Assembly: GCA_022703055.1 (NCBI GenBank)
Contig: JAKLEP010000001.1
Coordinates: forward strand, 346,850-410,849
DNA: 64,000 nucleotides
Direction of reading: 5' to 3'
Origin: Candidatus Omnitrophota bacterium
Lineage (GTDB): Bacteria > Omnitrophota > Gorgyraeia > VGKH01
Part shown: positions 19,968 through 53,414 of the stretch, piece after piece
Layout of the letters: every line of letters starts with the position of its first letter
How positions within the stretch are numbered: the first letter of the stretch is position 1
Made by a program: the position numbers and the translations under genes
The notes under the pieces: model-generated
Told to the model about the DNA's origin: nothing
Database searches by the model: none
Seen by the model: the letters and a program-made list of their open reading frames with translations, nothing else

Positions 19968-20000
19968 TGTCAAATTGGCTTTATGAGTTCTGCCCTTACG

Positions 20001-35257: not shown

Positions 35258-37341
35258 ACATACTTCAGATTCTTCCAGAGCTAAATGTCGGCGGCGTTGA
35301 GACCGGAACGGTCGATTTCGCCAGGTACCTGGTGAAAAACGGCCACAAGGCAATTGTAGTCTCAAACGGCGGAGACCTGGTCGGAGATTTAGAGCAGGCA
35401 GGGGTTTTGCATTATAAATTGCCGGTGCACGAGAAATCCATATTTACCATTATCAAGATGATCAAAGAGCTGACTTTGATCATCAAGAAAGAAAATATCG
35501 ATATCGTCCACGCCCGCTCCCGCGTTCCCGGCTGGATCGGATTCTTCGCCGCAAGAAATACCGGGACGATTTTCCTCACCACCTGCCATGGCCATTATTC
35601 CAAACATTTCCTTTCAAAAGTCATGGGTTTCGGAAAACTGGTGATTGTGCCCTCAAACGTTATCGGCAGGCATATGATAGAAGATTTCGGCGTCCATCAT
35701 CAGCGCATAAGATTGATTCCCCGAAGCGTAGACCTGGAAAAATTTACTTTTTCGCCTTACGATACCAGGCCTAAGACTGGTTTTATCGTCGGGATGATCG
35801 GCAGGATTACTCCTTTAAAAGGCCATGCCCATTTCCTGAAGGCGATTTCCAAGCTCATCAGAACACTTCCCTACTTAAAAGTTTGGATTGTCGGCGACTC
35901 CCCGCAAAGTAAAAAGATTTACCGCGAAGAGGTCGAGACTCTTGCCCGACGCTTGGGAATTTCCCACTGCGTGCAATTCTTGGGCAACAGAAAAGATATC
36001 CCCCAGATTATTTCCAAATTGAATATCGTAGTCCTTTCCACGGTGACCGAAGAGGCATTCGGACGGGTGATCATCGAATCCCAGGCCTGCGGCACGCCGG
36101 TTATCGCAACAAGAGTGGGAGGAGTCGTTGACGTAGTCGAGGACGGCGAGACCGGAATCCTGGTCCCTCCCAAGGATCCCGACGCCATGGCATCGGCCAT
36201 CTTGAAGCTACTTAAGGATAAAACTCTGGCGGAAAAACTATCGCTTGCCGGACGAAAAAACGTGGAGGAGAAATTCACTATCGAGATGATGTCTACCGAA
36301 ACGCTAAAAGTCTACCAGGAGGCTGCAAGCACCAGAAATATCCTGGTTATTAAAATCGGCGCTTTAGGCGATGTGATTCTTTCTATTCCCTCCATAAGGG
36401 CGATAAGAAAGAAATACCCCGAAGCCAAGATTTATTGCCTGGTGGGTAAAGAGTCCCGCCCGATTTTACAGCGCTGCCCGTATCTAAACGGCATCATCAT
36501 TTATGATTATAAAGAAAAAGACAAAGGCATATTCGGCCCGATTAATATTATAAAGGAATTGAGAAAATATTATTTTGATATGGTCATTGATTTGCAGAAT
36601 AACCGCAAGAGTCATCTGATTAGTTTCTCGACCATGTCCTCAAGCCGCTACGGATACAACAATCGCAAGTTCAGTTTCTTGTTGAACCACAAGGTTGAGC
36701 CGACAAAGGAAGATACCCCGCCGATAGAGCACCAGTTTAGGACGCTTGGGCTTTTGGGCATCGCCAAAGAAGATACATCCCTGGAATTATGGCCTTCCGA
36801 AGAGGACGAGGAATACATACGGATTCTTTTAGAATCAGAATGGGTATCAGGCAAAGAAAAAATCATAGGGATAAATTTAGGCGCCAGCAAAAGATGGCTC
36901 ACCAAATGCTGGCCGCTAGAGAATTTTGCCCGCCTTTCGGATAGGTTGTCCAAGGAAAATATCAGGGTGATTATCACTGGCGCGCAAGATGATTTGGGCG
37001 CTGCCTCAAAAATCCAGAAGATGGCGACTTCAAAACTTTTGAATTTCGCCGGCAAGACTTCGATTATGCAGCTGGCGGCATTGATCAGAAAATGCAGTGT
37101 TTTTATTAGCGCCGATTCAGCTCCTCTGCACGTCGCTGCGGCAATGAATACTCCCATCGTGGCTTTGTTCGGCCCGACGTCGCCCCAGAGGCATATGCCT
37201 CCGGCGAAAAAAGCAGTTGTGGTAAAGGCAAATGTAATCTGCAGCCCCTGTTATAAGCCTAAATGCCAGAAAATGGATTGCATGAATCAGATTAGCGTGG
37301 ATGAAGTTTATATGGCGGTAAAAAAACTGATTAAAACATGA
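35254..37341 (+). CDS. Fusion glycosyltransferase, GT4 (N-terminal) + GT9 heptosyltransferase-like (C-terminal)
   Basis: 695 aa. GT4 motif EAFGRVIIESQACGTPVIATRVGG..EDGETG. GT9 motifs VIKIGALGDVILSIPSIRAIRKKYP and DSAPLHVAAAMNTP. Confidence 0.75.
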   Translation: MNILQILPELNVGGVETGTVDFARYLVKNGHKAIVVSNGGDLVGDLEQAGVLHYKLPVHEKSIFTIIKMIKELTLIIKKENIDIVHARSRVPGWIGFFAARNTGTIFLTTCHGHYSKHFLSKVMGFGKLVIVPSNVIGRHMIEDFGVHHQRIRLIPRSVDLEKFTFSPYDTRPKTGFIVGMIGRITPLKGHAHFLKAISKLIRTLPYLKVWIVGDSPQSKKIYREEVETLARRLGISHCVQFLGNRKDIPQIISKLNIVVLSTVTEEAFGRVIIESQACGTPVIATRVGGVVDVVEDGETGILVPPKDPDAMASAILKLLKDKTLAEKLSLAGRKNVEEKFTIEMMSTETLKVYQEAASTRNILVIKIGALGDVILSIPSIRAIRKKYPEAKIYCLVGKESRPILQRCPYLNGIIIYDYKEKDKGIFGPINIIKELRKYYFDMVIDLQNNRKSHLISFSTMSSSRYGYNNRKFSFLLNHKVEPTKEDTPPIEHQFRTLGLLGIAKEDTSLELWPSEEDEEYIRILLESEWVSGKEKIIGINLGASKRWLTKCWPLENFARLSDRLSKENIRVIITGAQDDLGAASKIQKMATSKLLNFAGKTSIMQLAALIRKCSVFISADSAPLHVAAAMNTPIVALFGPTSPQRHMPPAKKAVVVKANVICSPCYKPKCQKMDCMNQISVDEVYMAVKKLIKT

Positions 37342-38436: not shown

Positions 38437-39450
38437 ATGCAGAAAAGAATCTTGATCGCAAATGTCAATTGGCTGGGGGACGTTTTAATGTCTTCCGCCT
38501 CAATCCGGGCGATAAAAAAAGCCTATCCTGATAGCTATCTTGCCTGCATGGTGCCTAAGCGCTGCGTGGAAGTACTATCCGGCAATCCCAATCTGGATGA
38601 GATCATTGTTTTTGACGAGAAAGACACGCATAAATGGATATTTGCCCAGATAAAATTCATCCGCGAATTAAAAAACAAGAAATTTGATATCGTATTTTTG
38701 TTTCATCGCTCGATGACCCGCGCACTAATCGTAAAGCTGGCCGGAATCCCCGAGAGGGTCGGCTACTACACCCAAAAAAGATCCTGGCTCTTGACCAAGG
38801 CAATCGCCCAACCTGACCGCCAGATACATCGTCTGGACTATTATTTCAATATCGTCAGCTCTTATGGCATAAAATCCGATGGAAGATACTATGAATTCTT
38901 TGTCAGCGATGGCGACCGCGAATTTATCGACAAAAAGCTAAAAACACTGGGAGTCTCCCAGGAAGATTTTGTAGTGGTGATTAATCCCGGTGGGAACTGG
39001 GCTCCTAAGCGCTGGCCCAAAGAAAATTTCGCCGCGCTTTCCGATAGATTAATTAACGAGCTCGGCGCCAAAATAATAATCTCAGGCGCCGACAAAGACA
39101 TTGCTTTGGCCAATGAGATTTCTTCGCTCATGAAGCAAAAACCGATTATCTTAGCCGGGGCTACAAGCCTGAAACAGCTCGGGGCTTTGATGGAGGCATC
39201 CGATTTGGTCATCTCGGCAGATTCAGGGCCGATGCATATTGCCGCTGCCATGGGCACCGATTTAATCGCATTGTTCGGTCCGACAAAAGCGACTCTCACC
39301 GGGCCATTAGGAAAGGGAAAAATAGCAACAATCCAGCGAGAAGTGGGATGTGAAATTCCCTGCTATGTGAAAAACTGCCAGCACAATCGTTGCATGGAGG
39401 AAATTAGCGTAGACTATGTTTTCACGGAAGCCAAAAAATTCAGAGATTAA
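38437..39450 (+). CDS. Glycosyltransferase family 9 (LPS heptosyltransferase-like)
   Basis: 337 aa. Motifs NVNWLGDVLMSSASIRAIKKAYP and ADSGPMHIAAAMGT. Confidence 0.8.
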   Translation: MQKRILIANVNWLGDVLMSSASIRAIKKAYPDSYLACMVPKRCVEVLSGNPNLDEIIVFDEKDTHKWIFAQIKFIRELKNKKFDIVFLFHRSMTRALIVKLAGIPERVGYYTQKRSWLLTKAIAQPDRQIHRLDYYFNIVSSYGIKSDGRYYEFFVSDGDREFIDKKLKTLGVSQEDFVVVINPGGNWAPKRWPKENFAALSDRLINELGAKIIISGADKDIALANEISSLMKQKPIILAGATSLKQLGALMEASDLVISADSGPMHIAAAMGTDLIALFGPTKATLTGPLGKGKIATIQREVGCEIPCYVKNCQHNRCMEEISVDYVFTEAKKFRD

Positions 39451-41470
39451 GAATATTTTAGTCGTCAGCCTCACCAATATCGGCGACGTCATTCTGACTC
39501 TGCCCGTAATCGACACTTTAAAAGAGAATTTTCCCCAAGCCCGCATCCATGTCGTCGTCGGGCCGAAGGCCCTGGATTTACTCAACAATGATTTCCGCCT
39601 GAATCTGGTTGTCTACGACAAAAGAATCTCGCTAAAAGCCAAGCTGGGCTTCTTGATTTATCTAAAGAAGCAGAAGTTTGATCTCGTCGTTAACCTGCGT
39701 AACGCCGGTTTTGTCCGCCTCTTGAAAGCACCGTATAAAACGCCTGCGCTTTTAAAAATCCCCAAGACAATCGAGCACATGAAATACCGCCATCTCTACA
39801 AATTGAAGTCGACAATGCCATCGATCGAGAAATTCTGCTCGCTTGCCGAGATTTGCACCAATCAAAACGACAGAACCAAAGTGGACGGATTATTAGAAGA
39901 GAATAATATTCCCGCCTCGGGGTTTGTCGTGGTTTCACCCGGAGCTGCCAGCCACTGGAAAAGGTACCGCGCCAGCGGCTTCGCCGAGGTCGGCGATTAT
40001 TTAATGGAGAAATTCCGGTTGAAGATTATCATGGTTGGCGACAAAAACGATGCCGGTATCGTCGAGGATATTATCAACCTTATGAAGCATAAGCCGGTTA
40101 ATCTTGCCGGCCAGACCAATTTGCGCGAGCTTGCCTATCTATTAAAGAAGGCAAAATTAGTGATTTCCAATGACAGCGGGGTGATGCATTTGGCCAGCTA
40201 CCTCGATGTCCCCACCTTAGCGATTTTTGGCCCCACCGACCCCAAAAAATACGGCCCCTGGAATAATAAGAGCCTGGTTATAAGAGAGGAGCTGGATTGT
40301 TCGCCCTGCGAGCAGTCAAGCTGCCGCTATGAACACGAGTGCATGAATCTTTTGCATGAAGACAGGATAATAAAGCTCGCCGAGAAACTTCTTTCGGCAA
40401 ACCTCGCCCAGGAAAACCTGGCAATGTTCGCGCCTTTCTTGGGATACCGGAGGATTTTGATTGTGCGTACCGATAGAATCGGCGACGTGTTATTGTCCAC
40501 GCCGGTGATAAAAGCAGTCAAAGACTTTTATCCCAATTCATTTGTGGCGGTAATGGTCTCGCCATACGCCAAAGAAATCATCGAGGGAAACCCTTACGCC
40601 GATGAAGTCATCATTTATGATAAGGATAAAAAACACAAAAGCGTCTTGGCATCGATGGGATTTGCCCGCCGGCTAAAGCAGAGGAAATTCGATTTGGCGA
40701 TAATTTTACATCCCACCAACCGCGTGAATCTAGTCACCTATTTTGCGCGCATCCCCGAGCGGGTTGGCTACAACAAAAAAATGGGGCATCTTTTAACTAA
40801 AAAGATAGAAGACACCAAACATTTAGGCGAGAAGCACGAGATGGAATATTCCCTGGATGTTATCCGCGCACTCGGCATCGAGCCCAAGGATAAAACGCTT
40901 TATATGCCTATAAAATTAGAATCGGAAATATGGCTTGAAGATATTCTGGCCAAAAACCGCATACTGAATCAAGAGAGGCTGGTGGCCATTCATCCGGCGG
41001 CGAGCTGCCCGTCCAAGATCTGGCCGGCCGAATCCTTTGCCAAACTCGCCGATATCTTGATGGAAAAATACGGATATAAAATAATTATTGTCGCCGGCCC
41101 TAAAGATAAAAAATTAGCGCAAAAAGTCCAAGATAAAATGTCTTATCCGGTATTAAATCTGGCCGGCGACACAACAGTCAGCCGCCTGGCCAGTATCCTA
41201 AAAAGATGCAAACTCTTTATCTCAAATGATTCCGGCCCGGTACATATTGCAACTGCAGTGGGAACACCGGTAATTTCTATTTTTGGACGCAACCAGGCGG
41301 GATTAAGCCCGCTTCGCTGGGGGCCGCTCGGCCTCAAGGATAAATTCCTGCATAAGGATGTCGGATGTATTGAGTGTTTAGCGCATAATTGTAAAAAAGA
41401 ATTCACCTGTTTGAAGGCGATTCAGGTAGAAGACGTTTTAAAAACAGTGGATGAAGTTTTGAAAGAATGA
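39416..41470 (+). CDS. Tandem GT9-GT9 fusion (two heptosyltransferase-like modules)
   Basis: 684 aa. Module 1 has VVSLTNIGDVILTLPVID and NDSGVMHLASYLDVP. Module 2 has IVRTDRIGDVLLSTPVIKAV and NDSGPVHIATAVGTP. Confidence 0.75.
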   Translation: MFSRKPKNSEIKNILVVSLTNIGDVILTLPVIDTLKENFPQARIHVVVGPKALDLLNNDFRLNLVVYDKRISLKAKLGFLIYLKKQKFDLVVNLRNAGFVRLLKAPYKTPALLKIPKTIEHMKYRHLYKLKSTMPSIEKFCSLAEICTNQNDRTKVDGLLEENNIPASGFVVVSPGAASHWKRYRASGFAEVGDYLMEKFRLKIIMVGDKNDAGIVEDIINLMKHKPVNLAGQTNLRELAYLLKKAKLVISNDSGVMHLASYLDVPTLAIFGPTDPKKYGPWNNKSLVIREELDCSPCEQSSCRYEHECMNLLHEDRIIKLAEKLLSANLAQENLAMFAPFLGYRRILIVRTDRIGDVLLSTPVIKAVKDFYPNSFVAVMVSPYAKEIIEGNPYADEVIIYDKDKKHKSVLASMGFARRLKQRKFDLAIILHPTNRVNLVTYFARIPERVGYNKKMGHLLTKKIEDTKHLGEKHEMEYSLDVIRALGIEPKDKTLYMPIKLESEIWLEDILAKNRILNQERLVAIHPAASCPSKIWPAESFAKLADILMEKYGYKIIIVAGPKDKKLAQKVQDKMSYPVLNLAGDTTVSRLASILKRCKLFISNDSGPVHIATAVGTPVISIFGRNQAGLSPLRWGPLGLKDKFLHKDVGCIECLAHNCKKEFTCLKAIQVEDVLKTVDEVLKE

Positions 41471-41488
41471 TGTAATCTTTGCGGTTTA

Positions 41489-41620
41489 CCCCGCCCTTTC
41501 TTTCGACAAAAACTCTGTTCTAGAAAGGGCGGGGTTTAATTCGCAGACGCCCCGATAAATCGGGGCTACGGCTTACGTCGTTGACACTCCGTAAGTCGTC
41601 TGCTCATTAAAGGAGGCAAC
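41489..41620 (+). repeat. Composite structured intergenic element, copy A (empty GC-rich hairpin + three-stem module + SD)
   Basis: 13 bp stem CCCCGCCCTTTCT/AGAAAGGGCGGGG with a 20 nt loop, then TTTAATTC. P1 is GCAGACG/CGTCTGC, P2 is CCCCGA-TAAA-TCGGGG, P3 is GGCTTACG/CGTAAGTC. Ends TCATTAAAGGAGG-N5-ATG. Confidence 0.7.
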
Positions 41621-42064
41621 ATGAAAAAGATTCTATCAGTGATATTGGCGCTGAGTTTAGTATTGGTATCCTCGGTATTTGCCAATGAAGAGAAGTGCCA
41701 TGTAGCGCAAAAGACGGATGAGGCGCAAGTAGTAAATACGCAAGAATCCAGCCGTAATCTGCAAGCAGGGAATCCGTCTAACCCGGATGAGGTTAGCCAG
41801 GGATTGATTCGCAAATACGAAGGTGCAAATTCACAAAAGCCAACAAAACCCCGCCAAGCCATTAATAAGTCGGTAAATAGTGCAAAGGTTAAGCCTGGAC
41901 GGCAGATACCTGATTCCGGGGACCAGACCACCGACAGCGAAAAAAACGCGGTAAGGATTAATGATTTGACAAATAAAAAGCAGACGGCTGAAGGTTTGCT
42001 TTTAAACGAAATGAACAAAACTCACGAAACCCAAAGCTCGGTAGTAAATAACATAAAACCGTAG
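41621..42064 (+). CDS. Hypothetical secreted, low-complexity (Q/N/S/K-rich) protein
   Basis: 147 aa. Clear signal peptide MKKILSVILALSLVLVSSVFA. SD AAAGGAGG is supplied by element copy A. Confidence 0.55.
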   Translation: MKKILSVILALSLVLVSSVFANEEKCHVAQKTDEAQVVNTQESSRNLQAGNPSNPDEVSQGLIRKYEGANSQKPTKPRQAINKSVNSAKVKPGRQIPDSGDQTTDSEKNAVRINDLTNKKQTAEGLLLNEMNKTHETQSSVVNNIKP

Positions 42065-42066
42065 AA

Positions 42067-42170
42067 CCCAGCCCTTTCTTTCGACAAAAATTCTGTTCTA
42101 GAAAGGGCGGGGTTAATTCGCGCAAACAATTTACGTCAGCTACGCTTCCGTAAATTGTGCGCTCATTAAT
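42067..42170 (+). repeat. Composite structured intergenic element, copy B (degenerate, no SD)
   Basis: Hairpin CCCAGCCCTTTCT/AGAAAGGGCGGGG with a loop nearly identical to copy A. Then TTAATTC, a long hairpin GCGCA(AA)CAATTTACG/CGTAAATTGTGCGC, and TCATTAAT. Confidence 0.65.
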
Positions 42171-42220
42171 CGGGAACCGGTCCTGAGGAAGGAAAATTTC
42201 TAAAATATCGGGGGATAATA

Positions 42221-42835
42221 ATGTATTACACAAAAATAACAATATTTGAAAATAATAGAAGGATACAACAGCTGTATGCATTTATCGATCTTATTGGAAG
42301 GTACTTTCAAAATACAAGACATGATGGCTTTAGCTTTGAGCTTATTGAGAATGAAGAAGCGCTGACAATAAGAATGGAAATTGATCGAATACTTACTCGA
42401 ATATATAGAATTGTAATAGCCTCTGGTGTTAATCCGGTAATACAATATACGCCTCCTCCTGCAATTGGTGGATATATACGAGATATAGATGTAATTCATA
42501 ATATTTTTAATTTAAGCAGGTTTGAAATTAGACCAACAATTTTATTAGATTATATCTACAGGGCAATTGGCATATACGAGGATAATAGCAAAAGTGCGTT
42601 GATTAGAACTTTTAATCCGTTTTTCTGGTTAGGATTATTATTAGATTATATTGTTAGTTTACCTTTTAGATTTATGGGCATAATAGGATTTAATCAGAAC
42701 AAAGTTGAGTCTTCATTTATTGGTAAGATTGTTAAAGGTATATTATATTTGATTACAGTATTTGCTTCATTTTTGACGATTCTACACTTACTTGGTTTAC
42801 TAGACAATTTTAAGAATTATTTCAGTAGTAAATAA
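42221..42835 (+). CDS. Hypothetical protein with a cytoplasmic N-terminal domain and two C-terminal TM helices
   Basis: 204 aa. TM candidates FFWLGLLLDYIVSLPFRFMGIIGF and ILYLITVFASFLTILHLLGLL. Very AT-rich coding sequence. No recognised family. Confidence 0.6.
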   Translation: MYYTKITIFENNRRIQQLYAFIDLIGRYFQNTRHDGFSFELIENEEALTIRMEIDRILTRIYRIVIASGVNPVIQYTPPPAIGGYIRDIDVIHNIFNLSRFEIRPTILLDYIYRAIGIYEDNSKSALIRTFNPFFWLGLLLDYIVSLPFRFMGIIGFNQNKVESSFIGKIVKGILYLITVFASFLTILHLLGLLDNFKNYFSSK

Positions 42836-42941
42836 ATTTTTAGGTAAGGAAAATTCCAGAGTCTAATAATTTAATAAAGATTCCCGAATAAAATGGGGAA
42901 CGCCCTCGATAACTCATAAAGAAGGAAAGGAGCCAATCTTG

Positions 42942-44441
42942 ATGATACAAAAAGTCGATGATTATTTGGATGCATTCGACCTTGGAGCATCAACTGCTGA
43001 GAAAGATACGCTTTTGGAGATCGCAAAAATTGAGACTCAGGAATTTTATGATTTATATCTGCATGATAGGATAGATATAGTTCGAGGCACGAAAGGATCA
43101 GGAAAGACAGCTTTATATAGGTTGTTTTTTTTCTTGAGAAATTTATTAATCGATAAAAATAAACTATATTGCATATTCGGAATTGAGGCAACTGGTGATC
43201 CCCTTTTTAAGCTCTTCCAAGATGAATTTAAGTTATATTCAGAGGTTGAATTTGCAAACTTTTGGGGCATTTATTTTATAGTTTTAATATACAAGTTAAT
43301 TTTTAATGCCGATAAGTTACGAAATCAGATCGGCAATGAAGATATAAATAAAATCGATGAGACATTATCAAGAATGGGATTAAAAATTCATAAAGATGGC
43401 TTTATCTTTAAAGACATACAGTGTTCAATTTTAGATTTGATGAGAAAAACAAAAATGAAATTAGGTGTTGAAACTAAAATAGACCAGATATCAGGTTTGC
43501 CAATTTCATTTACGCCCGCAATTGAATTAGAGCCCGGTACGATAGATGAAGTTCATAATAAACCGATTTATCTTATTGATTTTAAGAATATGATCATATC
43601 GATTCTCGAAAAACATAACATAAAAATTTGGATAATGTTAGATCGGCTTGATGAAGTTTTCCCCCATCGTAGCGAAGTAGAAAAAAATGGTTTAAAAGGA
43701 CTGCTGCGAGCATCGTATAATTTTTCTTCTCATTCGTTCCTAAGAATAAAAATATTTTTGAGAGACGATATATTCGAATATTTAGCCGCAGATGGTTTTA
43801 CTGCTTTAACACATATAACCGATAGATGCTCAGCTTCAATGTCTTGGTCAAAAGATGATATTTTATATTTAATTGTCAAAAGAATAGCCGCTATTCCTTA
43901 TTTGCGCTATGAATATGGAATAGATTCTGATAAAATTGATAAAGATAAGTCATATCGTAGCGAGGTGTTTTATAAAATTTTCCCTCCTTGCGTCGGAAAA
44001 ATCGCCACCTTTGATTGGTTATTTGATTCTTGTTCTGATGGAAATGATATAGTCACTCCGAGAGATATAATAGATTTTTTCAGATGCGCAAAGGCTTTTC
44101 AATTTAAGAAATTTAAACAAACTGGGCAACAACAAGAATATCTTATTGAAGAAGATATTCTTAAAAAATCGCTTGAAGCACTTTCTAAGCAGAAAAAAAA
44201 CATGTTTCTGTTTGCAGAATTTCCTCATCTTAAACAACATATATTAAAATTTGAAGGAGGATGTAGTGAGCACAACGCTGATTCATTAGAAAAACTTTTG
44301 GGAAGCGATTGGATTAAAATAGTAGATGAGCTCAAGTCAATCGGGTTTTTGAAACATGTTCCAAAAAGTGGTGCGTATAAGATTCCTATAATCTGGAGGC
44401 AGGGGTTAAGTATTAAAAGAAGAAAAGCTTTTGAAAAATAA
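42942..44441 (+). CDS. Uncharacterised P-loop NTPase (~499 aa)
   Basis: Walker A GTKGSGKT (nt 43086-43109). Walker B-like IWIMLDRLDE (nt 43626-43655). SD AAGGAAAGGAG. ATG 42942 is preferred over TTG 42939. Family not recognised. Confidence 0.7.
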   Translation: MIQKVDDYLDAFDLGASTAEKDTLLEIAKIETQEFYDLYLHDRIDIVRGTKGSGKTALYRLFFFLRNLLIDKNKLYCIFGIEATGDPLFKLFQDEFKLYSEVEFANFWGIYFIVLIYKLIFNADKLRNQIGNEDINKIDETLSRMGLKIHKDGFIFKDIQCSILDLMRKTKMKLGVETKIDQISGLPISFTPAIELEPGTIDEVHNKPIYLIDFKNMIISILEKHNIKIWIMLDRLDEVFPHRSEVEKNGLKGLLRASYNFSSHSFLRIKIFLRDDIFEYLAADGFTALTHITDRCSASMSWSKDDILYLIVKRIAAIPYLRYEYGIDSDKIDKDKSYRSEVFYKIFPPCVGKIATFDWLFDSCSDGNDIVTPRDIIDFFRCAKAFQFKKFKQTGQQQEYLIEEDILKKSLEALSKQKKNMFLFAEFPHLKQHILKFEGGCSEHNADSLEKLLGSDWIKIVDELKSIGFLKHVPKSGAYKIPIIWRQGLSIKRRKAFEK

Positions 44442-44530
44442 AGAGCAAGAAATCAAAAAACGTAAGGACTAAAGAATATTTGTTTTAACTCGTAGCTAAA
44501 ACTACATTAACCATAAATATACACGAATTA

Positions 44531-44559
44531 TTGACGAAACTTGGTAGTTATGATAGAAT
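44531..44559 (+). promoter_or_regulatory. Sigma70-type promoter restarting the LPS genes after the island
   Basis: TTGACG, 17 nt spacer, TAGAAT. The -10 hexamer ends 12 nt upstream of ATG 44572. Confidence 0.5.
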
Positions 44560-44571
44560 TTATCGTTCACT

Positions 44572-45510
44572 ATGACTAAAATAAATCTCAGTAAAATTAG
44601 GACTTATTCACTCGGCCGGAGGCAAAGCAAGGTCAATGTGGAGGATTTTGCCTGTATCTACAGGAGAGGCAACAGCTTCCGCAAATTTTACCAGAGCCTG
44701 CCCAATGTTTTGAAGGCGGCCGACTTGCGTAAAGTTGTTGCGGCCGTGGTTGAGTCCAAGAAAAAGAAAAAACCGGTCATTTTGATGATGGGCGCGCACG
44801 TGATTAAGTGCGGCCTAAGCCCGATAATCATTGATTTGATAGAAAGAAAAGTCATCACTGCCATTGCCTTAAACGGCGCCTGCATCATCCATGACTTTGA
44901 GCTGGCATTTATGGGCAAGACTTCCGAGGACGTGGACAAGGCCATCCTCGACGGGTCATTCGGCATGGCTGATGAGACATCAAGATTTGTCAATGAGGCG
45001 ATAAAGCAGGCTGCCCACGCCAATATCGGCATCGGCAAAGCCGTGGGAAAAGCCATTGAGAAGGATAAAAGATTAAAGTTCAAGGACCTAAGCGTAGTTT
45101 ACGCTGCCTATAAACATAATGTGCCGGTAAGCGTGCACATTGCCATCGGAACCGATATCGTGCACCAGCATATGTCATGCTCGGGCGCGGCGATCGGCCA
45201 GGCATCATTAAAAGATTTCCATAATTTTATCGCCGAGGTGGCCAAGTTAGGCGACGGAGGAGTGCTTTTGAATTTCGGCTCAGCGGTAGTATTGCCGGAA
45301 GTATTCTTAAAGGCTCTTACCGTGGCCAGAAACTTAGGCTATAAGGTGAAGAATTTCACCACGGCAAACTTTGATATGATTTACCATTACCGGCCGCAGC
45401 AGAATATCGTGCACCGGCCCACTCAAGGCACGGGCAAAGGATATTATATTATCGGACACCATGAGATTATGATGCCGCTTTTGGCTGCAGCAATAATTGA
45501 CGAATTATAA
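44572..45510 (+). CDS. Conserved hypothetical protein, possibly deoxyhypusine-synthase-like fold
   Basis: 312 aa. Block order (MMGAHVIKCGLSPIIIDLIERKVITAIALNGACIIHD; KHNVPVSVHIAIGTDIVH; LLNFGSAVVLPEV) loosely parallels deoxyhypusine synthase family proteins, as recalled from memory. Confidence 0.35.
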   Translation: MTKINLSKIRTYSLGRRQSKVNVEDFACIYRRGNSFRKFYQSLPNVLKAADLRKVVAAVVESKKKKKPVILMMGAHVIKCGLSPIIIDLIERKVITAIALNGACIIHDFELAFMGKTSEDVDKAILDGSFGMADETSRFVNEAIKQAAHANIGIGKAVGKAIEKDKRLKFKDLSVVYAAYKHNVPVSVHIAIGTDIVHQHMSCSGAAIGQASLKDFHNFIAEVAKLGDGGVLLNFGSAVVLPEVFLKALTVARNLGYKVKNFTTANFDMIYHYRPQQNIVHRPTQGTGKGYYIIGHHEIMMPLLAAAIIDEL

Positions 45511-46535
45511 TGAAAGACAGCTTAATAAAATTAGTCCACAATTTCAAGAGAGCAAAGATTCTCGTCATCGGCGACTTGATCCTGGATGAATTCATCTGGG
45601 GAAAGGCCAGCCGTCTTTCACCGGAGGCTCCAGTGCCGGTAGTTAAAGCCGAGGAAAGAGAATATATTCCCGGTGGAGCCTGCAACGTATCAAGTAATAT
45701 CACTAGCCTCGGCGCAAAATCAACACTTTTAGGAGTGGTGGGAAAAGATCGCCGGGCAGAATATTTGTTTGCGGAATTAAAGAAAAGAAAGATTGATAGT
45801 AAGGCGATAGTGGTGGACACCAAACGCCGGACAATCCTCAAAACCAGAGTCATCGCCCAGAGGCAGCAGGTGGTGAGGGTGGATTGGGAGCAGACCGACG
45901 AGATAAAGCAGGAGACGCTGCGCAAAATCGAGAATTTTATCAAGAATAATTTGAATAAGTTTGATGCTATTATCATTGAGGATTACGGAAAGGGCGTTAT
46001 CACGGAAAATTTGTTGCAGTATATAAAAGATGTGGCGGCGGGAAAGAAGATTATCACCGTCGATCCCAAGGAAGAGCATTTCAGCATGTATCGGGATTTG
46101 GGGATTACCGCCATCACTCCTAACAGAAGCGAAGCGGAAAACGCAATTAGGGATATCAAGATTCGCGACGCCAAGAATAGATTGCATATCTACAGCGATA
46201 AACTTAAGAGCGCAGGCGATATTGATAAAGCAGGCAAGGAATTATTGAAGTATCTCAATTCCAAAGCGGTTTTGATTACATTGGGCGAAAGCGGCATGCA
46301 GCTATTCACCAAAGAAAAGGCAAAATCAATAAATATTCCCACGGTGGCCAGAGAAGTTTTTGATGTATCCGGCGCGGGAGACACAGTCATCGCGGTATTT
46401 ACCCTGGCGTTGGCATCGGGAGCAAAATTATTGGAAGCGGCGCATTTGGCCAACTTTGCTGCAGGAATTGTCGTTGGGAAAATCGGAACTGCAACAGTCA
46501 GTCCTAAAGAATTAATCGAAAGAATTAAAGAGTAA
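45510..46535 (+). CDS. hldA: D-glycero-beta-D-manno-heptose-7-phosphate kinase (RfaE domain I type, PfkB family)
   Basis: 341 aa. Motifs ILVIGDLILDEFIWGKASRLSPEAPVPVV and DVSGAGDTV. No fused adenylyltransferase domain. Confidence 0.8.
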   Translation: MKDSLIKLVHNFKRAKILVIGDLILDEFIWGKASRLSPEAPVPVVKAEEREYIPGGACNVSSNITSLGAKSTLLGVVGKDRRAEYLFAELKKRKIDSKAIVVDTKRRTILKTRVIAQRQQVVRVDWEQTDEIKQETLRKIENFIKNNLNKFDAIIIEDYGKGVITENLLQYIKDVAAGKKIITVDPKEEHFSMYRDLGITAITPNRSEAENAIRDIKIRDAKNRLHIYSDKLKSAGDIDKAGKELLKYLNSKAVLITLGESGMQLFTKEKAKSINIPTVAREVFDVSGAGDTVIAVFTLALASGAKLLEAAHLANFAAGIVVGKIGTATVSPKELIERIKE

Positions 46536-46537
46536 TT

Positions 46538-47275
46538 ATGAATATTGTCGGAATCATACCCGCAAGATACGCCTCAACCCGTTTGGAGGCAAAAGTTTTA
46601 GCCGATATTTTAGGCAAGCCGATGATCCAGCATGTCTGGGAACGCGCCAAGCAGTCCAAGATGCTGGATGATCTGATTATCGCCTGCGATGATGAAAGAG
46701 TCAAAGAGGTGGCGGAAGGTTTCGGCGCCAAAGCGATTTTGACTTCTAAAGACCACGAATCAGGATCTGACAGGTTGACGGAAATCGTCCATTCTTTGGA
46801 CGTCAAAGCTATAATCAATATCCAGGGTGATGAGCCGTTGATCCATTCCACGATGATAGATAATCTGGCGCATGCGATTCTGGACGACGAGTCAGTCGTC
46901 ATGGCGACGATCATCAAGAAAATTGAAAATAAAGAAGAGATTGATAATCCCAATGTGGTCAAAGTGATAATTGATCGCAATGATTTCGCGATTTATTTCT
47001 CGCGCTCAAGGATTCCCTATCTTCGTGATAAAAGCGTGGAGCATGTTTATTACAAACACATGGGAATTTACGCTTATACCAAAGATTTCCTGTTTACTTT
47101 TAAGAACCTGCCTGAATCAAAATTAGAGAAGGCGGAGAAATTGGAGCAATTAAGGGCTCTTGAGGCAGGCTATAAGATTAAAACCGTCGAGACTAATATT
47201 GACACAATAGCAGTGGATACGGCGGAAGATTTGGAATTGGTCAAAGAAAGACTATCTGAAGAGAAAACAGATTAA
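46538..47275 (+). CDS. kdsB: 3-deoxy-manno-octulosonate cytidylyltransferase (CMP-Kdo synthetase)
   Basis: 245 aa. Motifs GIIPARYASTRL..K and NIQGDEPL. Confidence 0.9.
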   Translation: MNIVGIIPARYASTRLEAKVLADILGKPMIQHVWERAKQSKMLDDLIIACDDERVKEVAEGFGAKAILTSKDHESGSDRLTEIVHSLDVKAIINIQGDEPLIHSTMIDNLAHAILDDESVVMATIIKKIENKEEIDNPNVVKVIIDRNDFAIYFSRSRIPYLRDKSVEHVYYKHMGIYAYTKDFLFTFKNLPESKLEKAEKLEQLRALEAGYKIKTVETNIDTIAVDTAEDLELVKERLSEEKTD

Positions 47276-47288
47276 CAATATACAAAGT

Positions 47289-47360
47289 CTAAACCCTATA
47301 CCCCATACCCTACACCCTAGAGGATTTAGGGTATAGCGTTTAGGGTGTAGCGTTTAGAGT
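47289..47360. repeat. Long imperfect palindrome with internal ~14 nt periodicity (kdsB-kdsA spacer)
   Basis: The left arm AAACCCTATACCCCATACCCTACACCCTAG matches the right arm TAGGGTATAGCGTTTAGGGTGTAGCGTTT at 23 of 29 positions as reverse complement. The right arm is a tandem TTTAGGGTRTAGCG x2. Confidence 0.6.
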
Positions 47361-47386
47361 TTGATATTTTGGAGATTTGATAAGAA

Positions 47387-48220
47387 ATGAAACAAATTAA
47401 AGTTAGAAATATCAAAATTGGTTCCAGCGCGCCATTCGTGCTTATTGCCGGGCCTTGCGTGATCGAGGACCCTAAGGATTGTTTTGATACGGCAGTTGAG
47501 ATCCAGAAGATGACAAAGAGCCTGGGCATCCCGTTTATTTTTAAATCCAGTTTTGATAAGGCTAATCGCTCGTCGATAAAATCTTATCGCGGGCCGGGTT
47601 TAGTCAAGGGATTAAAGGTCCTTAAGAAAATCAAAGACGAGTTAAGGGTGCCGATTTTAAGCGATATTCATTCGCCACAGCAGGCCAAAGAGGCAGCCAA
47701 GGTATTAGACGTAATCCAGATCCCGGCGTTTTTGTGCCGTCAGACAGATTTAGTTGTGGCTGCCGCCAAAACCGGCAAAGTCATCAACATAAAAAAAGGA
47801 CAGTTCCTGGCGCCGTGGGACGTGGCACAGATCATAAAAAAGATTGAAAGCGCAGGCAACAACAATATTTTCATCACCGAAAGAGGGACAAGTTTTGGTT
47901 ATAATAATCTAGTCAGCGATTTCCGTTCACTGGTGATTTTGCGAAGATTCGGTTATCCGATTATTTACGATGCCACACACAGCGTCCAGCTTCCCGGCGG
48001 AAAAGGCACGGCTTCCGGCGGAGAAAAACATTTTGTTTCTTATTTATCCAGGGCGGCGGTGGCGGTTGGTTGCGATGGTTTGTTTGTCGAAGTGCATAAA
48101 AATCCCAAGAAGGCTCTTAGTGATGGGCCAAACATGATCACGCCTAAAGAATTAAAAACAATTTTAGTCCAGGCAATCGGAATCGACAGGTTCCTTCGAT
48201 CTTTTAGGATTAAAAAATAA
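47387..48220 (+). CDS. kdsA: 2-dehydro-3-deoxyphosphooctonate aldolase (Kdo8P synthase)
   Basis: 277 aa. Motifs FVLIAGPCVIE, FKSSFDKANRSS, DATHSVQ.PG. Confidence 0.9.
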   Translation: MKQIKVRNIKIGSSAPFVLIAGPCVIEDPKDCFDTAVEIQKMTKSLGIPFIFKSSFDKANRSSIKSYRGPGLVKGLKVLKKIKDELRVPILSDIHSPQQAKEAAKVLDVIQIPAFLCRQTDLVVAAAKTGKVINIKKGQFLAPWDVAQIIKKIESAGNNNIFITERGTSFGYNNLVSDFRSLVILRRFGYPIIYDATHSVQLPGGKGTASGGEKHFVSYLSRAAVAVGCDGLFVEVHKNPKKALSDGPNMITPKELKTILVQAIGIDRFLRSFRIKK

Positions 48221-48243
48221 CTCTAAAATAAATTGGTGGTCAA

Positions 48244-49203
48244 ATGATAAAAACACGCGCGAAAGAAGTTTTGAGGATTGAGTCTGAAGCAGTGCGTTCG
48301 CTGATCAACCGGATCGACGATACTTTCGAGAAGGCAGTGGATTTGATGTATGCCTGTAAGGGAAGAGTCGTGGTTACCGGAATGGGCAAGGGCGGTTTAA
48401 TCGGACAGAAGATATCCGCGACTTTGTCCTCGGTAGGGACTCCCAGCCTCTGGATGCATTCGGTCGAGGCTATCCACGGAGATTTGGGCAGGGTATCCAA
48501 AGAAGATATCGTGATTGTGATTTCCAAGAGTGGTGAGACTGAAGAGATTCGCAGTTTGCTACCGTTATTAAAGAAAATCGGCACCAAGATTATTGCTTTG
48601 ACCGGAAATACCAAATCCACTTTAGCCAAATACAGTAATGTGGTTTTGGATACAAGCGTTAAGAAAGAGGCATGTTCTTTGAACTTAGCGCCGACAGCAA
48701 GCACGACAGCGATGCTGGCCATGGGCGATGCCTTGGCGGTTTGTTTGTTGGATAAAAAAGGATTTAAGAAAGAGGATTTTGCTTTTTATCATCCCGGAGG
48801 AATGCTGGGCAAACAACTTCTTCTTACCGTGGAAGATATCATGCGCATGAAAAAATCCAATCCGGTGGTAAACCAGGAGAAAAAGATTAAGGATGTGTTG
48901 CTTGCCATAACCAAAGCCAGGGCTGGTTCGGCATCGATTGTAGATAAAAAAGGCAAACTGGTGGGAATATTCACCGACGGTGATTTAAGGCGCCATCTGG
49001 AAGTTGACGCCAATTTATCGGAAAAGAAGGTCAAGGACGTAATGACTAAAAGGCCCACGACTGTCACCAAAGAGACTTTGGCTGCCGAGGCTTTAAGGAT
49101 ATTGCAGGAAAGAAAGATTGATGAGGTCCCGGTAGTGGATAAAAAAGGAAAACCCATCGGTTTGTTAGATGTGCAGGATTTATTGAAAGCAGGTTTGGTG
49201 TAA
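48244..49203 (+). CDS. kdsD: Arabinose-5-phosphate isomerase (SIS + tandem CBS)
   Basis: 319 aa. SIS motifs VTGMGKGG and SKSGETEE. Two C-terminal CBS repeats. Confidence 0.9.
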   Translation: MIKTRAKEVLRIESEAVRSLINRIDDTFEKAVDLMYACKGRVVVTGMGKGGLIGQKISATLSSVGTPSLWMHSVEAIHGDLGRVSKEDIVIVISKSGETEEIRSLLPLLKKIGTKIIALTGNTKSTLAKYSNVVLDTSVKKEACSLNLAPTASTTAMLAMGDALAVCLLDKKGFKKEDFAFYHPGGMLGKQLLLTVEDIMRMKKSNPVVNQEKKIKDVLLAITKARAGSASIVDKKGKLVGIFTDGDLRRHLEVDANLSEKKVKDVMTKRPTTVTKETLAAEALRILQERKIDEVPVVDKKGKPIGLLDVQDLLKAGLV

Positions 49204-49204
49204 A

Positions 49205-49723
49205 TTGATTCAAGATAAGGCCAGAAAGGTTAAGCTTTTGATTTTGGATGTTGACGGTGTCCTGACCGACGGAAAAATCGTCATGGATGAAAAAGGAAAG
49301 CAGCTTAAATTCTTCGATGTCCAGGATGGTTTAGGCGTAGTTTTGCTAAAGAGAGCCGGGATTAACACCATAATTTTATCCGCCAGGTATTCCCGAGTGG
49401 TAAGCCATCGCGCCAAAGACATCAAGATTTTTAAGGCTTATCAGAATTGCGATGACAAGCTTTTAACTTACCATAAGATACTCAAGCAAATGAAACTAAA
49501 GAACGAAAGTGTCTGTTTTATCGGCGATGAATTAATCGATATTCCCGTCTTAAAGAGAGCTGGTTTATCCGTAGCGGTTGCCAACGCCGCGCCAGAAGCC
49601 AAGAGAGCCGCGGATTACATCACCAAGAAAAAAGGCGGCGACGGCGCAGTGCGCGAGATAATCGAGCTCATCTTGAAATCTCAAGGCAAGTGGGACAAAG
49701 TCATTAGCAAATATTTCAGATAA
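49205..49723 (+). CDS. kdsC: Kdo-8-phosphate phosphatase (HAD family)
   Basis: 172 aa. TTG start. HAD motif LLILDVDGVLTDG. Also GDELIDIPV. Confidence 0.85.
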   Translation: MIQDKARKVKLLILDVDGVLTDGKIVMDEKGKQLKFFDVQDGLGVVLLKRAGINTIILSARYSRVVSHRAKDIKIFKAYQNCDDKLLTYHKILKQMKLKNESVCFIGDELIDIPVLKRAGLSVAVANAAPEAKRAADYITKKKGGDGAVREIIELILKSQGKWDKVISKYFR

Positions 49724-50541
49724 TGCGCATAATAATATCAGTTTTTATTTTATTTTTCTTTTGCGCGGCAGCTCATTGTCAGGAGGCAGATCAGCAGTTC
49801 TCGGAGTTTAATCTCTCCGGCCATTCCAAGACCGGTGAAAAAACCTGGGAAGTAAAAGGCGAGACTGCCGATGTTCTGGAAGATTCGGTAAAACTTAAAA
49901 ACATCGACGCTGATCTCTACGGCAAAGAAAAGGTCAACCTTAAGGCGCAAACGGGAGATCTCAATAAAACAAGCGGGGACATGCATCTTGAGAAGGATGT
50001 CGTGGCTACCACCGAAACCGGCTCGAAACTGACCACTGATTCCTTGGACTGGAACCGCACTTCCAATCTGGTGACGACCAAAGATCCGGTGAAAATCGAG
50101 CAGAAAAATATTACTGCCACCGGAACCGGGGCTAAAGCCCACACCGACTTGAAAAAGGCCCAGCTCAATGAAGAAGTCCAGGTCGAGATCCAGACCGAAG
50201 ACGCAAACAAGAATTTAAAGAAGACTGTGATTACCTGCGACGGGCCGCTGGATATCGATTATCAGAATTCCATGGCGGTTTTTAACGACAACGTGCGCGT
50301 CAAAGACGAAAACGGCGAGATGACATCCAAAACCATGGAAGTTTTCTTTGACAGCCAGACCAAATCCATAGTCAAGATCATTGCCAAAGGCAATGTCAAG
50401 ATTGTGCGTGACGGAAACGAAAGCTTCAGCCAGGGCGCGATTTATACCGCCAAAGACAAGAAGATTACTTTGATCGGCCGGCCCAGGCTTATTCTTTATT
50501 CAGAAAAAGGAGCATTTGATAATGCGGCTTTTGGAAACTAA
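49723..50541 (+). CDS. LptC-like + LptA/OstA_N-like fused periplasmic LPS transport protein
   Basis: 272 aa. N-terminal anchor/signal. Two consecutive beta-jellyroll-type repeats. The second carries the LptA-like pattern AVFNDNVRV...AKGNVKIVRDG...AIYTAKDKKITLIG. Located between kdsC and lptB. Confidence 0.6.
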   Translation: MRIIISVFILFFFCAAAHCQEADQQFSEFNLSGHSKTGEKTWEVKGETADVLEDSVKLKNIDADLYGKEKVNLKAQTGDLNKTSGDMHLEKDVVATTETGSKLTTDSLDWNRTSNLVTTKDPVKIEQKNITATGTGAKAHTDLKKAQLNEEVQVEIQTEDANKNLKKTVITCDGPLDIDYQNSMAVFNDNVRVKDENGEMTSKTMEVFFDSQTKSIVKIIAKGNVKIVRDGNESFSQGAIYTAKDKKITLIGRPRLILYSEKGAFDNAAFGN

Positions 50542-51244
50542 CGGTTTAGCCAAGGCATACGACGGCAGGAAAGTCGTCGACGGTGTAAGCTTCTCTATCA
50601 AGAGGGGCGAGATCGTCGGGCTTCTTGGCCCGAACGGTGCCGGCAAGACCACCATATTTTATATGATCGTGGGGATTATCCCGGCAGAAGCAGGGAAAAT
50701 ATTTTTTGACCAGACAGATATTACCCGTTTAGCCATCCATGACCGCTGCCGCCTAGGAATGGGGTATCTGCCGCAGGATGCATCGATTTTCCGTAAATTA
50801 TCGGTCGAGGATAATATCCTGGCGATATTAGAGACTTTGAATATCAGCCGCACCGAAAGAAACAGAAGATTAAGGAAACTATTGAACGAATTAAACATTG
50901 CGCATTTAGCGAAAAACAAAGCCTATACTCTTTCGGGTGGTGAAAGAAGAAGATTGGAGATAACCCGTGCACTGGTGACCAATCCATCGTTTATACTTTT
51001 GGATGAGCCGTTTTCCGGGATTGATCCGATAATCGTCGCTGATGCGCAGGAGATCATAAAAGAACTAAAAGCCAAGGGATTGGGAATTTTACTTACCGAT
51101 CATAATGTCCGGGAGACGCTTTCTATAACCGATAGGGCATACTTAATCGCGGAGGGAAAGATTCTGATTTCTGGCTCAGCCGAGCAGCTTATCAACGAGC
51201 CCAAGGCGCGCCAGATTTATCTCGGAGAAAAGTTTAAAATGTAA
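50522..51244 (+). CDS. lptB: LPS export ABC transporter ATPase
   Basis: Walker A GPNGAGKTT, signature LSGGERRRLE, Walker B ILLDEP. ATG 50522 is preferred over TTG 50516. Confidence 0.9.
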   Translation: MRLLETNGLAKAYDGRKVVDGVSFSIKRGEIVGLLGPNGAGKTTIFYMIVGIIPAEAGKIFFDQTDITRLAIHDRCRLGMGYLPQDASIFRKLSVEDNILAILETLNISRTERNRRLRKLLNELNIAHLAKNKAYTLSGGERRRLEITRALVTNPSFILLDEPFSGIDPIIVADAQEIIKELKAKGLGILLTDHNVRETLSITDRAYLIAEGKILISGSAEQLINEPKARQIYLGEKFKM

Positions 51245-51248
51245 GTGA

Positions 51249-51470
51249 GGACACGGCTTATGGAGCGATAGCGAACATAAGTCGTGAGTCCGAACTTACC
51301 CCGCCCTCTAAGCGGAGCAAAGGGGGTGGAGACAATAAGTAAACCATACCCGGTTTTTCTATGCGTCATAGTGATACTTAAAGCATAGAGGGCGGGGTTC
51401 AATTCACAGACGGCTTCGCCTACGACTTACGTCGTTGGCACTCCGTAAGTCGTCTGTTCATTGAAGGAAA
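51249..51470 (+). repeat. Composite structured intergenic element, copy C (extra upstream hairpin, 77 nt loop)
   Basis: Upstream hairpin GGACACGGCTTATG...CATAAGTCGTGAGTCC. Arms CCCCGCCCTCT (51299-51309) and AGAGGGCGGGG (51387-51397), then TTCAATTC. P1 is ACAGACG/CGTCTGT, P3 is GACTTACG/CGTAAGTC. Ends TCATTGAAGGA. Confidence 0.65.
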
Positions 51471-51478
51471 ATGTTAAA

Positions 51479-52378: not shown

Positions 52379-52413
52379 GGAATGGAGTGACTTAAGTTGT
52401 CTGTCCGAATTTG

Positions 52414-52798
52414 ACCCTTGACATTTTATTTATGAAAGTTAATTCAATTTACTATTTTTATATATTAAAATGCAATGATGGTAGTAAATATTACGGTCAT
52501 ACCAATAATTTAGAAAAACGTTTTAAGGCTCATTCAGGTGGTCAGGTTTATTCTACTAGAGATAGACGTCCGCTTAAATTAGCTTACTGGGAAGAATTAG
52601 AAACTCGTTCAGAAGCTTTTAGAAGAGAAATGCAATTTAAGAATGGGAGAACTAGGAAAGAAACTATAGAAAAATTAATAGATTCTTTTCCTCAGGTAAA
52701 ATGTCAAGGGTTTAATTCGCAGGCGCCCCGATAAATCGGGGCTACGACTTACGTCGCTAAAGCTTCCGTAAGTCGACTGCTCATTAAAGGAGGTAGTA
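52414..52798 (+). mobile_element. Composite element copy D carrying GIY-YIG ORF 2 inside its hairpin
   Basis: 15 bp perfect inverted repeat ACCCTTGACATTTTA (52414-52428) / TAAAATGTCAAGGGT (52697-52711) brackets the ORF. Then TTAATTC, P1 GCAGGCG/CGACTGC, P2 CCCCGATAAATCGGGG (identical to copy A), P3 GACTTACG/CGTAAGTC, and TCATTAAAGGAGG before the clpP ATG. Confidence 0.55.
52432..52734 (+). CDS. Small GIY-YIG nuclease family protein (YhbQ/COG2827-like), copy 2
   Basis: ~100 aa. Motif YYFYILKCNDGSKYYGHTNNLEKRFKAH...R...E. Start uncertain (ATG 52432 or TTG 52411, no clear SD). The C-terminus reads through the right repeat arm into P2. Confidence 0.7.
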   Translation: MKVNSIYYFYILKCNDGSKYYGHTNNLEKRFKAHSGGQVYSTRDRRPLKLAYWEELETRSEAFRREMQFKNGRTRKETIEKLIDSFPQVKCQGFNSQAPR

Positions 52799-53404: not shown

Positions 53405-53414
53405 GGAGAGAGAA

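Follow-up and report, generated by a model that had tools for sequence, protein, structure and literature searches.

Mobile foldback repeats restricted to Omnitrophota that insert at Shine-Dalgarno sequences, some of them carrying a gene for a putative GIY-YIG mobilizing nuclease

The window analysed here is a stretch of 64,000 nt from a Candidatus Omnitrophota bacterium (GTDB lineage Bacteria; Omnitrophota; Gorgyraeia; VGKH01), corresponding to positions 346,850–410,849 of contig JAKLEP010000001.1 in assembly GCA_022703055.1. Directly after the last heptosyltransferase gene, at 41489–41620, the original prediction had placed the prototype of a repeated, structured intergenic element, composed of a GC-rich hairpin, a module with three stems and the Shine-Dalgarno (SD) sequence of the next open reading frame (ORF). 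Three other copies were noted in the window, and the plus-strand RNA was proposed to be the folded species. Our analysis makes it probable that these copies belong to a phylum-restricted family of mobile foldback repeats, similar to miniature inverted-repeat transposable elements (MITEs) and repetitive extragenic palindromes (REPs), whose ORF-bearing members encode a putative GIY-YIG nuclease that mobilizes them.

All of the features listed for 41489–41620 are in place. The GC hairpin (41488–41535), which corresponds to what we term the central palindrome, was recovered by inverted-repeat search with arms of 14 nt, rather than 13 bp, that are 100% complementary (41488–41501 and 41522–41535; ACCCCGCCCTTTCT/AGAAAGGGCGGGGT) and enclose a loop of 20 nt. 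Directly 3′ of it lies TTTAATTC. The hairpin module that follows (41535–41611, + strand) matches a covariance model (CM) built from 89 related sequences with 82.6 bits (E = 3.1e-21). The predicted stems P1 (GCAGAC/GTCTGC), P2 (GCCCCGAT/ATCGGGGC) and P3 (ACGGCTTACG/CGTAAGTCGT) were found by the same inverted-repeat search, but two further helices had been overlooked. The module runs from P0 (TTTAAT/ATTAAA) through a TC/TC loop to P1, the P2 insert and P3, and then through a second TC/TC loop to P4, a 2-bp helix inside P3. The element terminates in TCATTAAAGGAGG, with the ATG at 41621 five bases further, and GGAGG at 41612–41616 forms the SD of ORF 41621–42064. By analogy with filled and empty alleles at other loci, this GGAGG is probably target sequence and not part of the element.

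The second copy has the same design. Its central palindrome (42065–42114) abuts the stop codon TAG at 42062–42064, and its module (42112–42170, +; 59.0 bits, E = 2.8e-14) is a variant without P2 (GCGCAAAC.../...TTGTGCGC). The central palindromes of copies 1 and 2 are 96% identical, yet the module types differ. Of the ORFs bracketed by these copies, 41621–42064 encodes 147 amino acids with a signal-peptide-like N-terminus and 42221–42835 encodes a hydrophobic protein of 204 amino acids; neither has a Pfam match.

Copies 3 and 4 are larger, and flank the trigger factor gene tig. Copy 3 begins with an inverted module (left arm, 51241–51299, − strand, 44.2 bits) whose P0 (GTAAGT) includes the stop codon of lptB, continues with a central palindrome (51298–51398) of 16-nt arms that are 94% complementary and enclose a 69-nt loop, and ends with a direct module (right arm, 51398–51465, +, 86.1 bits) directly upstream of tig. 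Copy 4 lies between tig and clpP. Its left arm (52358–52414, −, 49.3 bits) encodes the last codons and the stop codon (TAA, 52376–52378) of tig. The two halves of its central inverted repeat, CGAATTTGACCCTTGACATTTTA at 52406–52428 and TAAAATGTCAAGGGTTTAATTCG at 52697–52719 (inverted-repeat search), pair over 23 nt with 91% complementarity at a distance of 268 nt, and the loop between them holds a gene (52432–52734, +) for a 100-amino-acid GIY-YIG nuclease of the UPF0213 type (Pfam PF01541, E = 1.2e-14). The right arm (52711–52788, +, 75.7 bits) is followed by AAAGGAGG and the clpP start codon. Trigger factor itself (51461–52378) comprises 305 amino acids, in which Pfam detects Trigger_N and Trigger_C domains but no PPIase domain.

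A CM scan of all 64 kb with filters off returned four + strand modules at 59–86 bits (E from 3e-14 to 3e-22), far beyond chance, two − strand modules at 44 and 49 bits, and no further match. A search that allowed mismatches and used the 3′ terminus of the module as query also matched the − strand, at 52361–52381. The inverted modules, the larger palindromic element of which they are part and the GIY-YIG ORF of copy 4 had all escaped the original prediction. Copies 1 and 2 lack a left arm because the upstream stop codons (41468–41470 in the case of copy 1) sit 17 nt and 1 nt before their palindromes. The copy at 41489–41620 is thus a truncated, decayed half element rather than a prototype.

To define the canonical form, we relied on loci fetched for comparison (designated here by L numbers). 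An iterated nhmmer search of 1.26 Mb of these loci yielded 382 non-redundant modules. The building block is a hairpin module of 57–85 nt, with P0, P1, P3, P4 and the two TC/TC loops, in which the P2 branch is optional. Among (−,+) neighbour pairs of modules, 125 of 126 have a gap below 310 nt, mostly 16–150 nt, and therefore the composite palindrome is the canonical form: an inverted module, a variable central palindrome and a direct module, together ~170–220 bp. Tandem and mosaic arrangements of modules are also seen. The central palindrome without an ORF takes an empty form, ACCCTTGACAT...ATGTCAAGGGT, and in L027 and L108 an ORF-less central stem reads ACCCTTGACATC-aaa-GATGTCAAGGGT. A short non-coding element with modules at both ends as terminal inverted repeats (TIRs) and with many copies has the make-up of a MITE.

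The compensatory changes described earlier for the window copies are genuine and extend across the family. In an alignment of 89 sequences, 94.9% of the cells are paired and 12 pairs have changed on both sides. A second set, of 127 modules drawn from 66 genome loci, includes many that the strict pattern described below does not match; here 95.1% of the cells are paired and double changes occur in 25 of 26 pairs. The covariation score of this set is 0.405, compared with 0.143 for shuffled alignments (none of 500 reached 0.405) and at most 0.076 for slid partners. P0 alone occurs as TTTAAT/ATTAAA, TTAAAT/ATTTAA, TTCAAT/ATTGAA and TTGAAT/ATTCAA.

The distribution of the element was established with a strict, 46-bit pattern drawn from the module. 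Among 185,579 species genomes it matched 63 loci, with up to eight matches in one metagenome-assembled genome (MAG), and all of them lie in MAGs or single-amplified genomes of Omnitrophota, a few of which are labelled Planctomycetales. More than 119 metagenome loci are among the matches listed. The element is therefore restricted to this phylum. No published description of it was found in the full-text literature.

Evidence for mobility comes from comparison of flanks among the fetched loci, where many orthologous sites differ in element content. The clearest example is a site at which the flanks of L112 and L061 are ~96% identical and L112 carries a 192-nt composite. The empty allele of L061 reads TGCTAA-ATTAAAGGAGG-TAATAAAATG, whereas in the filled allele of L112 ATTAAAGGAGG stands on each side of the element. 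A search for the donor of this insertion among the fetched loci gave no candidate above 81% over more than 120 nt. Between tig and clpP, the window has a left arm, the GIY-YIG gene and a right arm, L034 has an ORF-less composite, and L064 is empty, with flanks 80–87% identical and the SD of clpP located within the end of tig. In this empty allele the end of tig differs from that in the window, where the left arm of copy 4 supplies it. Another pair, L072 and L084, shares a 100% identical flank but has a full composite in one member and a lone module in the other, with breakpoints at the short repeat CTCAA(A/T)T, and therefore reveals a route to half elements of the kind seen in copy 1. A 114-nt unit of an array distinguishes L129 from L152, which share 98% identity. 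Close relatives differ in the insertions that they carry, a single genome can contain paralogous copies, and recombination reshuffles the arrays.

Several composites are flanked by direct repeats that are perfect, locus-specific and of variable length (8–16 bp): AAGGAGAATATTATG in L088 (15 bp), AGGAAGTCAAAATGAA in L183 (16 bp), AAAGGAGG in L166 (8–10 bp) and AAAAAGAGG in L099 (9 bp). Flank matches of at least 9/11 were observed for 7 of 112 composites, compared with 1.6 expected from shuffled flank pairs. In the window, copy 3 is flanked by a decayed repeat of ~18 nt. The C-terminal codons and stop codon of lptB (GGAGAAAAGTTTAAAATGTAA, 51225–51244) resemble the ribosome binding site (RBS) and start of tig (AAGGAAAATGTTAAAATG, 51463–51483), and the end of lptB may have been built from the left copy of this target duplication. 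What is duplicated is the SD of the downstream gene, sometimes together with its spacer and ATG, and therefore the SD that follows the terminal TCATT of the module is target DNA. The idea that the element supplies the SD must be abandoned, since the filled allele contains ATTAAAGGAGG twice, against a single occurrence in the empty allele. These comparisons show that elements insert into the short spacer before genes, at the SD, and duplicate 8–16 bp of it such that the downstream gene keeps one RBS. Filled and empty alleles with target-site duplication are again traits of MITEs, although the variable length of the duplication is unlike that of classical MITEs. The early suggestion of a mobile unit is thereby borne out.

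We next consider the gene in the loop of the palindrome. The best PDB matches of the window protein are UPF0213 proteins of 96–107 amino acids (1YWL, E = 3e-12; 1ZG2, E = 1e-10). Across 46 sequences, the GIY-YIG catalytic residues Y10, Y20, G22, R30 and E66 are invariant. The 3′ repeat and the beginning of the right arm supply the codons for the conserved C-terminal sequence KCQGFNS. About 98 homologues with 54–83% identity were identified, and those from named organisms are all Omnitrophota. With 80–100 amino acids the proteins consist of a single domain, and no appended DNA-binding domain was found; the NCBIfam model for group I intron endonucleases gives 18.9 bits against a cut-off of 56.

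The position of this gene is constant. In all eight loci examined (the window and seven others), the order is left arm, inverted repeat, ORF, inverted repeat and right arm, and these ORFs encode a UPF0213 GIY-YIG protein, not a known transposase class. Six of the other contexts (yceD-rpmF, trmD-rplS, thrS-infC, rplJ-rplL, DEAD helicase-flavodoxin and gatB-peptidase S41) have a left arm, (G/A)ACCCTTGACATTTT, the ORF, AAAATGTCAAGG(G/A)T, a right arm and AAAGGAGG, co-directional with the operon. L045, from a VGKH01 MAG, has a divergent 79-amino-acid GIY-YIG ORF in the same position but within a different central repeat, GACCCAGCACTAATTTT/AAAATTAGTGCTGGGT. In MAG GCA_016935525.1, two GIY-bearing copies with unrelated flanks share ~90% identity between the left terminus, TCAAATGA, and AAAGGAGG, although their right arms are only ~70% identical. 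No other cargo was found between arms in the fetched loci. ORF-less elements share the central repeat, and the recent copy in L112 retains the GIY-type repeat together with the 3′ end of the ORF (GAAGCAAAATGTCAAGGGT). From their sequences, ORF-less copies look like internal-deletion derivatives of GIY-bearing copies, and half elements such as the one at 41489–41620 look like further deletion products. The full-length, 'autonomous-like' copies are those that carry the stand-alone GIY-YIG gene of ~80–100 amino acids in the loop of the central palindrome.

An ORF in the window (52365–52431) begins at an ATG inside the left terminus (AAATGA), as is also the case in L190, L191, L196 and L197. Inspection by eye indicates that in five of six GIY-bearing elements such a leader ORF has its stop at, or close to, the TGA of CCCTTGACA, and the GIY-YIG start codon follows within a few bases. 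It is a speculative notion that the orphan copy of the SD and the leader ORF couple translation of the nuclease to the captured RBS.

Small GIY-YIG genes were also encountered outside of the element. In L028 (9610–10060, −), a different GIY-YIG gene (~36% identity) is inserted where a tRNA-Leu gene ends, and 18 nt of that tRNA 3′ end (CGACTCCCTCCTTGCCCA) are directly duplicated on the far side of the GIY-YIG gene; a diverged module is found just upstream of the same tRNA-Leu. In Bacteroidetes contigs (L201–L206; for example, L203 974–1881), genes for 80-amino-acid UPF0213 GIY-YIG proteins form part of 402-nt tandem units, each of which repeats the 5′ portion of the neighbouring tRNA-Ser gene, with one or two units per contig beside an integrase gene. 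Such arrangements suggest that in other phyla, too, small GIY-YIG genes may move and generate long target duplications, and hint that mobility could be a trait of the protein family.

The mechanism that we envisage begins with the arms, which as DNA hairpins or as a cruciform would be recognized by the element-encoded GIY-YIG nuclease. This structure-specific enzyme would cut the arms, the SD target or both, and host repair would complete the insertion and thereby produce a duplication of variable length. A strand-specific choice of the SD would always orient the better-conserved arm toward the gene start. Elements inside operons are co-transcribed, and any effect on the mRNA would be secondary. 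In its most complete form the proposal is tentative, and we regard it as possible rather than probable: the stand-alone UPF0213 GIY-YIG protein would take the part of a transposase in a new class of foldback transposons of bacteria, and would recognize hairpin or cruciform arms and target and duplicate SDs in a strand-specific manner. The host gene would keep its RBS, while the orphan copy and the ATG of the left terminus (AAATGA) would drive the leader ORF, whose end immediately precedes the start codon of the nuclease, an arrangement that might be called 'RBS capture'.

Several observations weigh against the view that these are selfish repeats mobilized by their own nuclease. The link between nuclease and element is one of association in the sequences; to our knowledge UPF0213 proteins have no demonstrated activity, and we know of no GIY-YIG enzyme that is established as a bacterial transposase. 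No classical cut-and-paste mechanism accounts for a duplication that varies from 8 to 16 bp. The conservation of many copies as orthologues across species suggests constraint or gene conversion beyond pure selfishness. For example, the right arm of copy 3 is 100% identical to its orthologous module in L064, whereas the flanks are ~81% identical. (A general excess of module over flank conservation among orthologues was considered and rejected: mean identities are 77.8% for modules and 77.3% for flanks, although the excess is larger in close pairs.) Single modules are strongly polar, with the TCATT end toward a gene start in 43 cases and toward a stop in 6, and the downstream arm outscores the upstream arm in 30 of 41 composites; function as a sense-strand RNA could explain both equally well. 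Finally, the loci were ascertained with a strict pattern that itself derives from right arms. The orientation counts were taken from the proximity of starts and stops, because simple ORF calls are imperfect (an antisense ORF at 41566–42018 had beaten 41621–42064).

The main rival for the role of the GIY-YIG gene is that of a homing endonuclease that parasitizes repeats maintained by the host or mobilized otherwise. Such an enzyme would cut ORF-less palindromes and be copied into them via arm homology, without moving the repeats. ORF-less central stems do exist (L027 and L108), the tig-clpP composite is ORF-less in L034 and ORF-bearing in the window, and the arms would provide 60–80 bp of homology. 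The pair of copies in GCA_016935525.1, with left arm and ORF so much more alike than the right arms, looks as if the right arm had pre-existed, and the GIY-YIG genes in duplicated tRNA fragments elsewhere are homing-like. We nevertheless consider this explanation unlikely. In L112, a composite that lacks the ORF has recently inserted at a site that was free of the element; therefore whole elements move, and some enzyme is needed. No alternative enzyme is seen between or beside the arms, and a protein of ~100 amino acids does not have the DNA-binding domain typical of sequence-specific GIY-YIG homing enzymes.

Another possibility is a cis-acting structured RNA, whose plus-strand hairpins would serve as an intercistronic processing site, as a 3′ or 5′ stabilizer or as a translation element, with mobility being incidental. 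The location of the elements, always intergenic and within co-directional operons, agrees with this possibility, as do the strong covariation, the polarity toward gene starts, the better conservation of the downstream arm and the persistence of orthologous copies such as the right arm of copy 3 across species. Moreover, modules end 1–3 nt before an SD or 1–5 nt before a start codon that has none. In about half of the start-facing modules the start codon is found 1–5 nt past TCATT with no SD between (for example, GCTCATTTAAAATG); loci with such an SD-less start beside the hairpin include L041, L054, L120 and L010. Targeting of one strand of the SD would, however, also explain both the position of the module end and the 43:6 polarity. 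The downstream genes are unrelated, and presence or absence varies at orthologous sites before housekeeping genes, for example between tig and clpP.

For the pairing statistics, modules were sorted according to which way the neighbouring genes run, and mismatches were tallied within the main stems. The tally is 13 G·U and 13 A·C mismatches for downstream (sense) arms, and 14 and 10 for upstream (antisense) arms read in module orientation. A structure that acts in one strand would tolerate G·U and not A·C, and this asymmetry is absent from what are low counts. The original argument for a plus-strand RNA from alternating G-U and A-U pairs accordingly does not hold. About 97% of main-stem pairs are Watson-Crick and wobble accounts for ~1–2% of pairs, a proportion that is small by the standard of functional RNAs and usual for DNA palindromes. 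The balance between G·U and A·C weakens the RNA explanation, although the small counts are also a caveat for our own. In addition, most elements include an inverted module, which would give a different (GA/GA) RNA, and this combination of direct and inverted modules in a single element likewise suggests that recognition takes place on DNA.

The absence of any known RNA family, as originally stated, is upheld: an Rfam scan of the window at gathering thresholds gave no match in the element, only two tRNAs and a c-di-GMP riboswitch elsewhere, and at E ≤ 10 the region 41000–53200 gave only a chance match to mir-4484 (23.5 bits, gathering score 90). The earlier suggestion that the unit could provide a terminator finds no support either. 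An intrinsic-terminator scan of 41000–53500 reported no central palindrome, the loops of these palindromes measure 20–270 nt, and no T-run is conserved in the tail, TTTAATTC, so the hairpin is not terminator-like. Overall, we find a role as structured RNA quite improbable. A UUCG tetraloop had been considered as an argument for RNA, but the P2 loops are GGCC-UUC-GGCC triloops and are uninformative. Hammerhead, twister, group I intron, attC and T-box were rejected on inspection of the sequence, which has no core motifs, no integrase and housekeeping flanks.

The least credible explanation, to which we give very little weight, is that the hairpins are of the REP/BIME (bacterial interspersed mosaic element) or IS200/IS605 type and are mobilized in trans by an HUH (Y1) transposase or a REP-associated tyrosine transposase (RAYT) encoded elsewhere, since a general likeness (intergenic imperfect palindromes with conserved mismatches, inverted pairs, mosaic arrays) is countered by the absence of a Y1 transposase gene between arms in any fetched locus, by 8–16 bp target duplications that neither IS200/IS605 nor REPs make, and by a 57–85 nt module with a three-way junction in place of a 20–40 nt REP.

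Three other features of the window deserve mention. Two tRNA genes open it (1–76 and 112–184, +; Rfam scan), and in other Omnitrophota loci (L014, L035, L082 and L028) modules directly abut tRNA genes. A c-di-GMP-I-GGC riboswitch aptamer (RF03167) is located at 19953–20100 (−), with 63.2 bits against a gathering score of 59. A 49-nt segment recurs with ~2-kb spacing and 67–73% identity at 36494–36542, 38603–38651 and 40608–40656, inside three successive glycosyltransferase/heptosyltransferase genes, which probably reflects gene paralogy.

Omnitrophota is a large uncultured phylum with compact genomes, and a phylum-wide repeat found before core genes, among them ribosomal-protein genes, tig and clpP, and infC, has consequences for gene calling, operon structure and assembly. 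Its arms also rewrite gene ends, as exemplified by the last codons and stop codon of tig (copy 4) and by the stop codon of lptB (copy 3). If GIY-YIG proteins do mobilize the repeats, they would represent an enzyme class for transposition not known in bacteria, the large orphan UPF0213 family with its solved structures would acquire a first function, and a mobile element would have a neat means of entering ribosome binding sites that spares the gene downstream. With its two conserved TC/TC loops, the module would offer a defined biochemical substrate.

The element works like REP/BIME repeats with RAYTs and like Correia-type MITEs, yet departs from each in defining features. The REP/BIME and RAYT systems of proteobacteria ('REPtrons') likewise consist of multi-copy extragenic imperfect palindromes with conserved mismatches, are lineage-restricted, form inverted pairs and mosaic arrays between co-directional genes, and include a small nuclease or transposase gene between two inverted copies. 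In the Omnitrophota element, however, the enzyme is of the GIY-YIG (UPF0213) type and not an HUH Y1 protein such as RAYT, the longer module has internal loops and an optional branch and no GTAG-type 5′ tetranucleotide, and insertions duplicate 8–16 bp of SD. MITEs and related palindromic repeats (Correia/NEMIS of Neisseria, ERIC, BOX and RUP) are similar in being non-coding, ~100–200 bp in length and equipped with TIRs and target duplications, in being co-transcribed near genes and polymorphic for presence or absence, and in arising by internal deletion from ORF-bearing copies. They differ in that the 'TIRs' described here are long covarying hairpins, the duplication is variable in length with an RBS as the target, and the protein of the ORF-bearing partner belongs to no known transposase class.

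Free-standing GIY-YIG homing endonucleases (T4 Seg and the I-TevI family) have in common with the element a GIY-YIG core, a selfish gene in conserved sequence, an ORF that is present or absent at the same site and probable spread via break repair. In contrast, the protein considered here lacks the DNA-binding domain that confers specificity for a long site, its gene lies on the chromosome, within operons of a bacterial phylum with a free-living or host-dependent lifestyle, and is enclosed by a palindromic repeat, which transposes to naive sites in its own right. Stand-alone UPF0213/YhbQ-type proteins (PDB 1YWL and 1ZG2), which we take to be related to the structure-specific nuclease domain of SLX1, are of the same sequence family and the same size, but the solved proteins have no assigned function, whereas the gene described here is fixed inside a mobile palindrome. 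That fixed place suggests that hairpin or cruciform DNA is the substrate, and there is a substantial chance that the element defines a new enzyme class for bacterial transposition.

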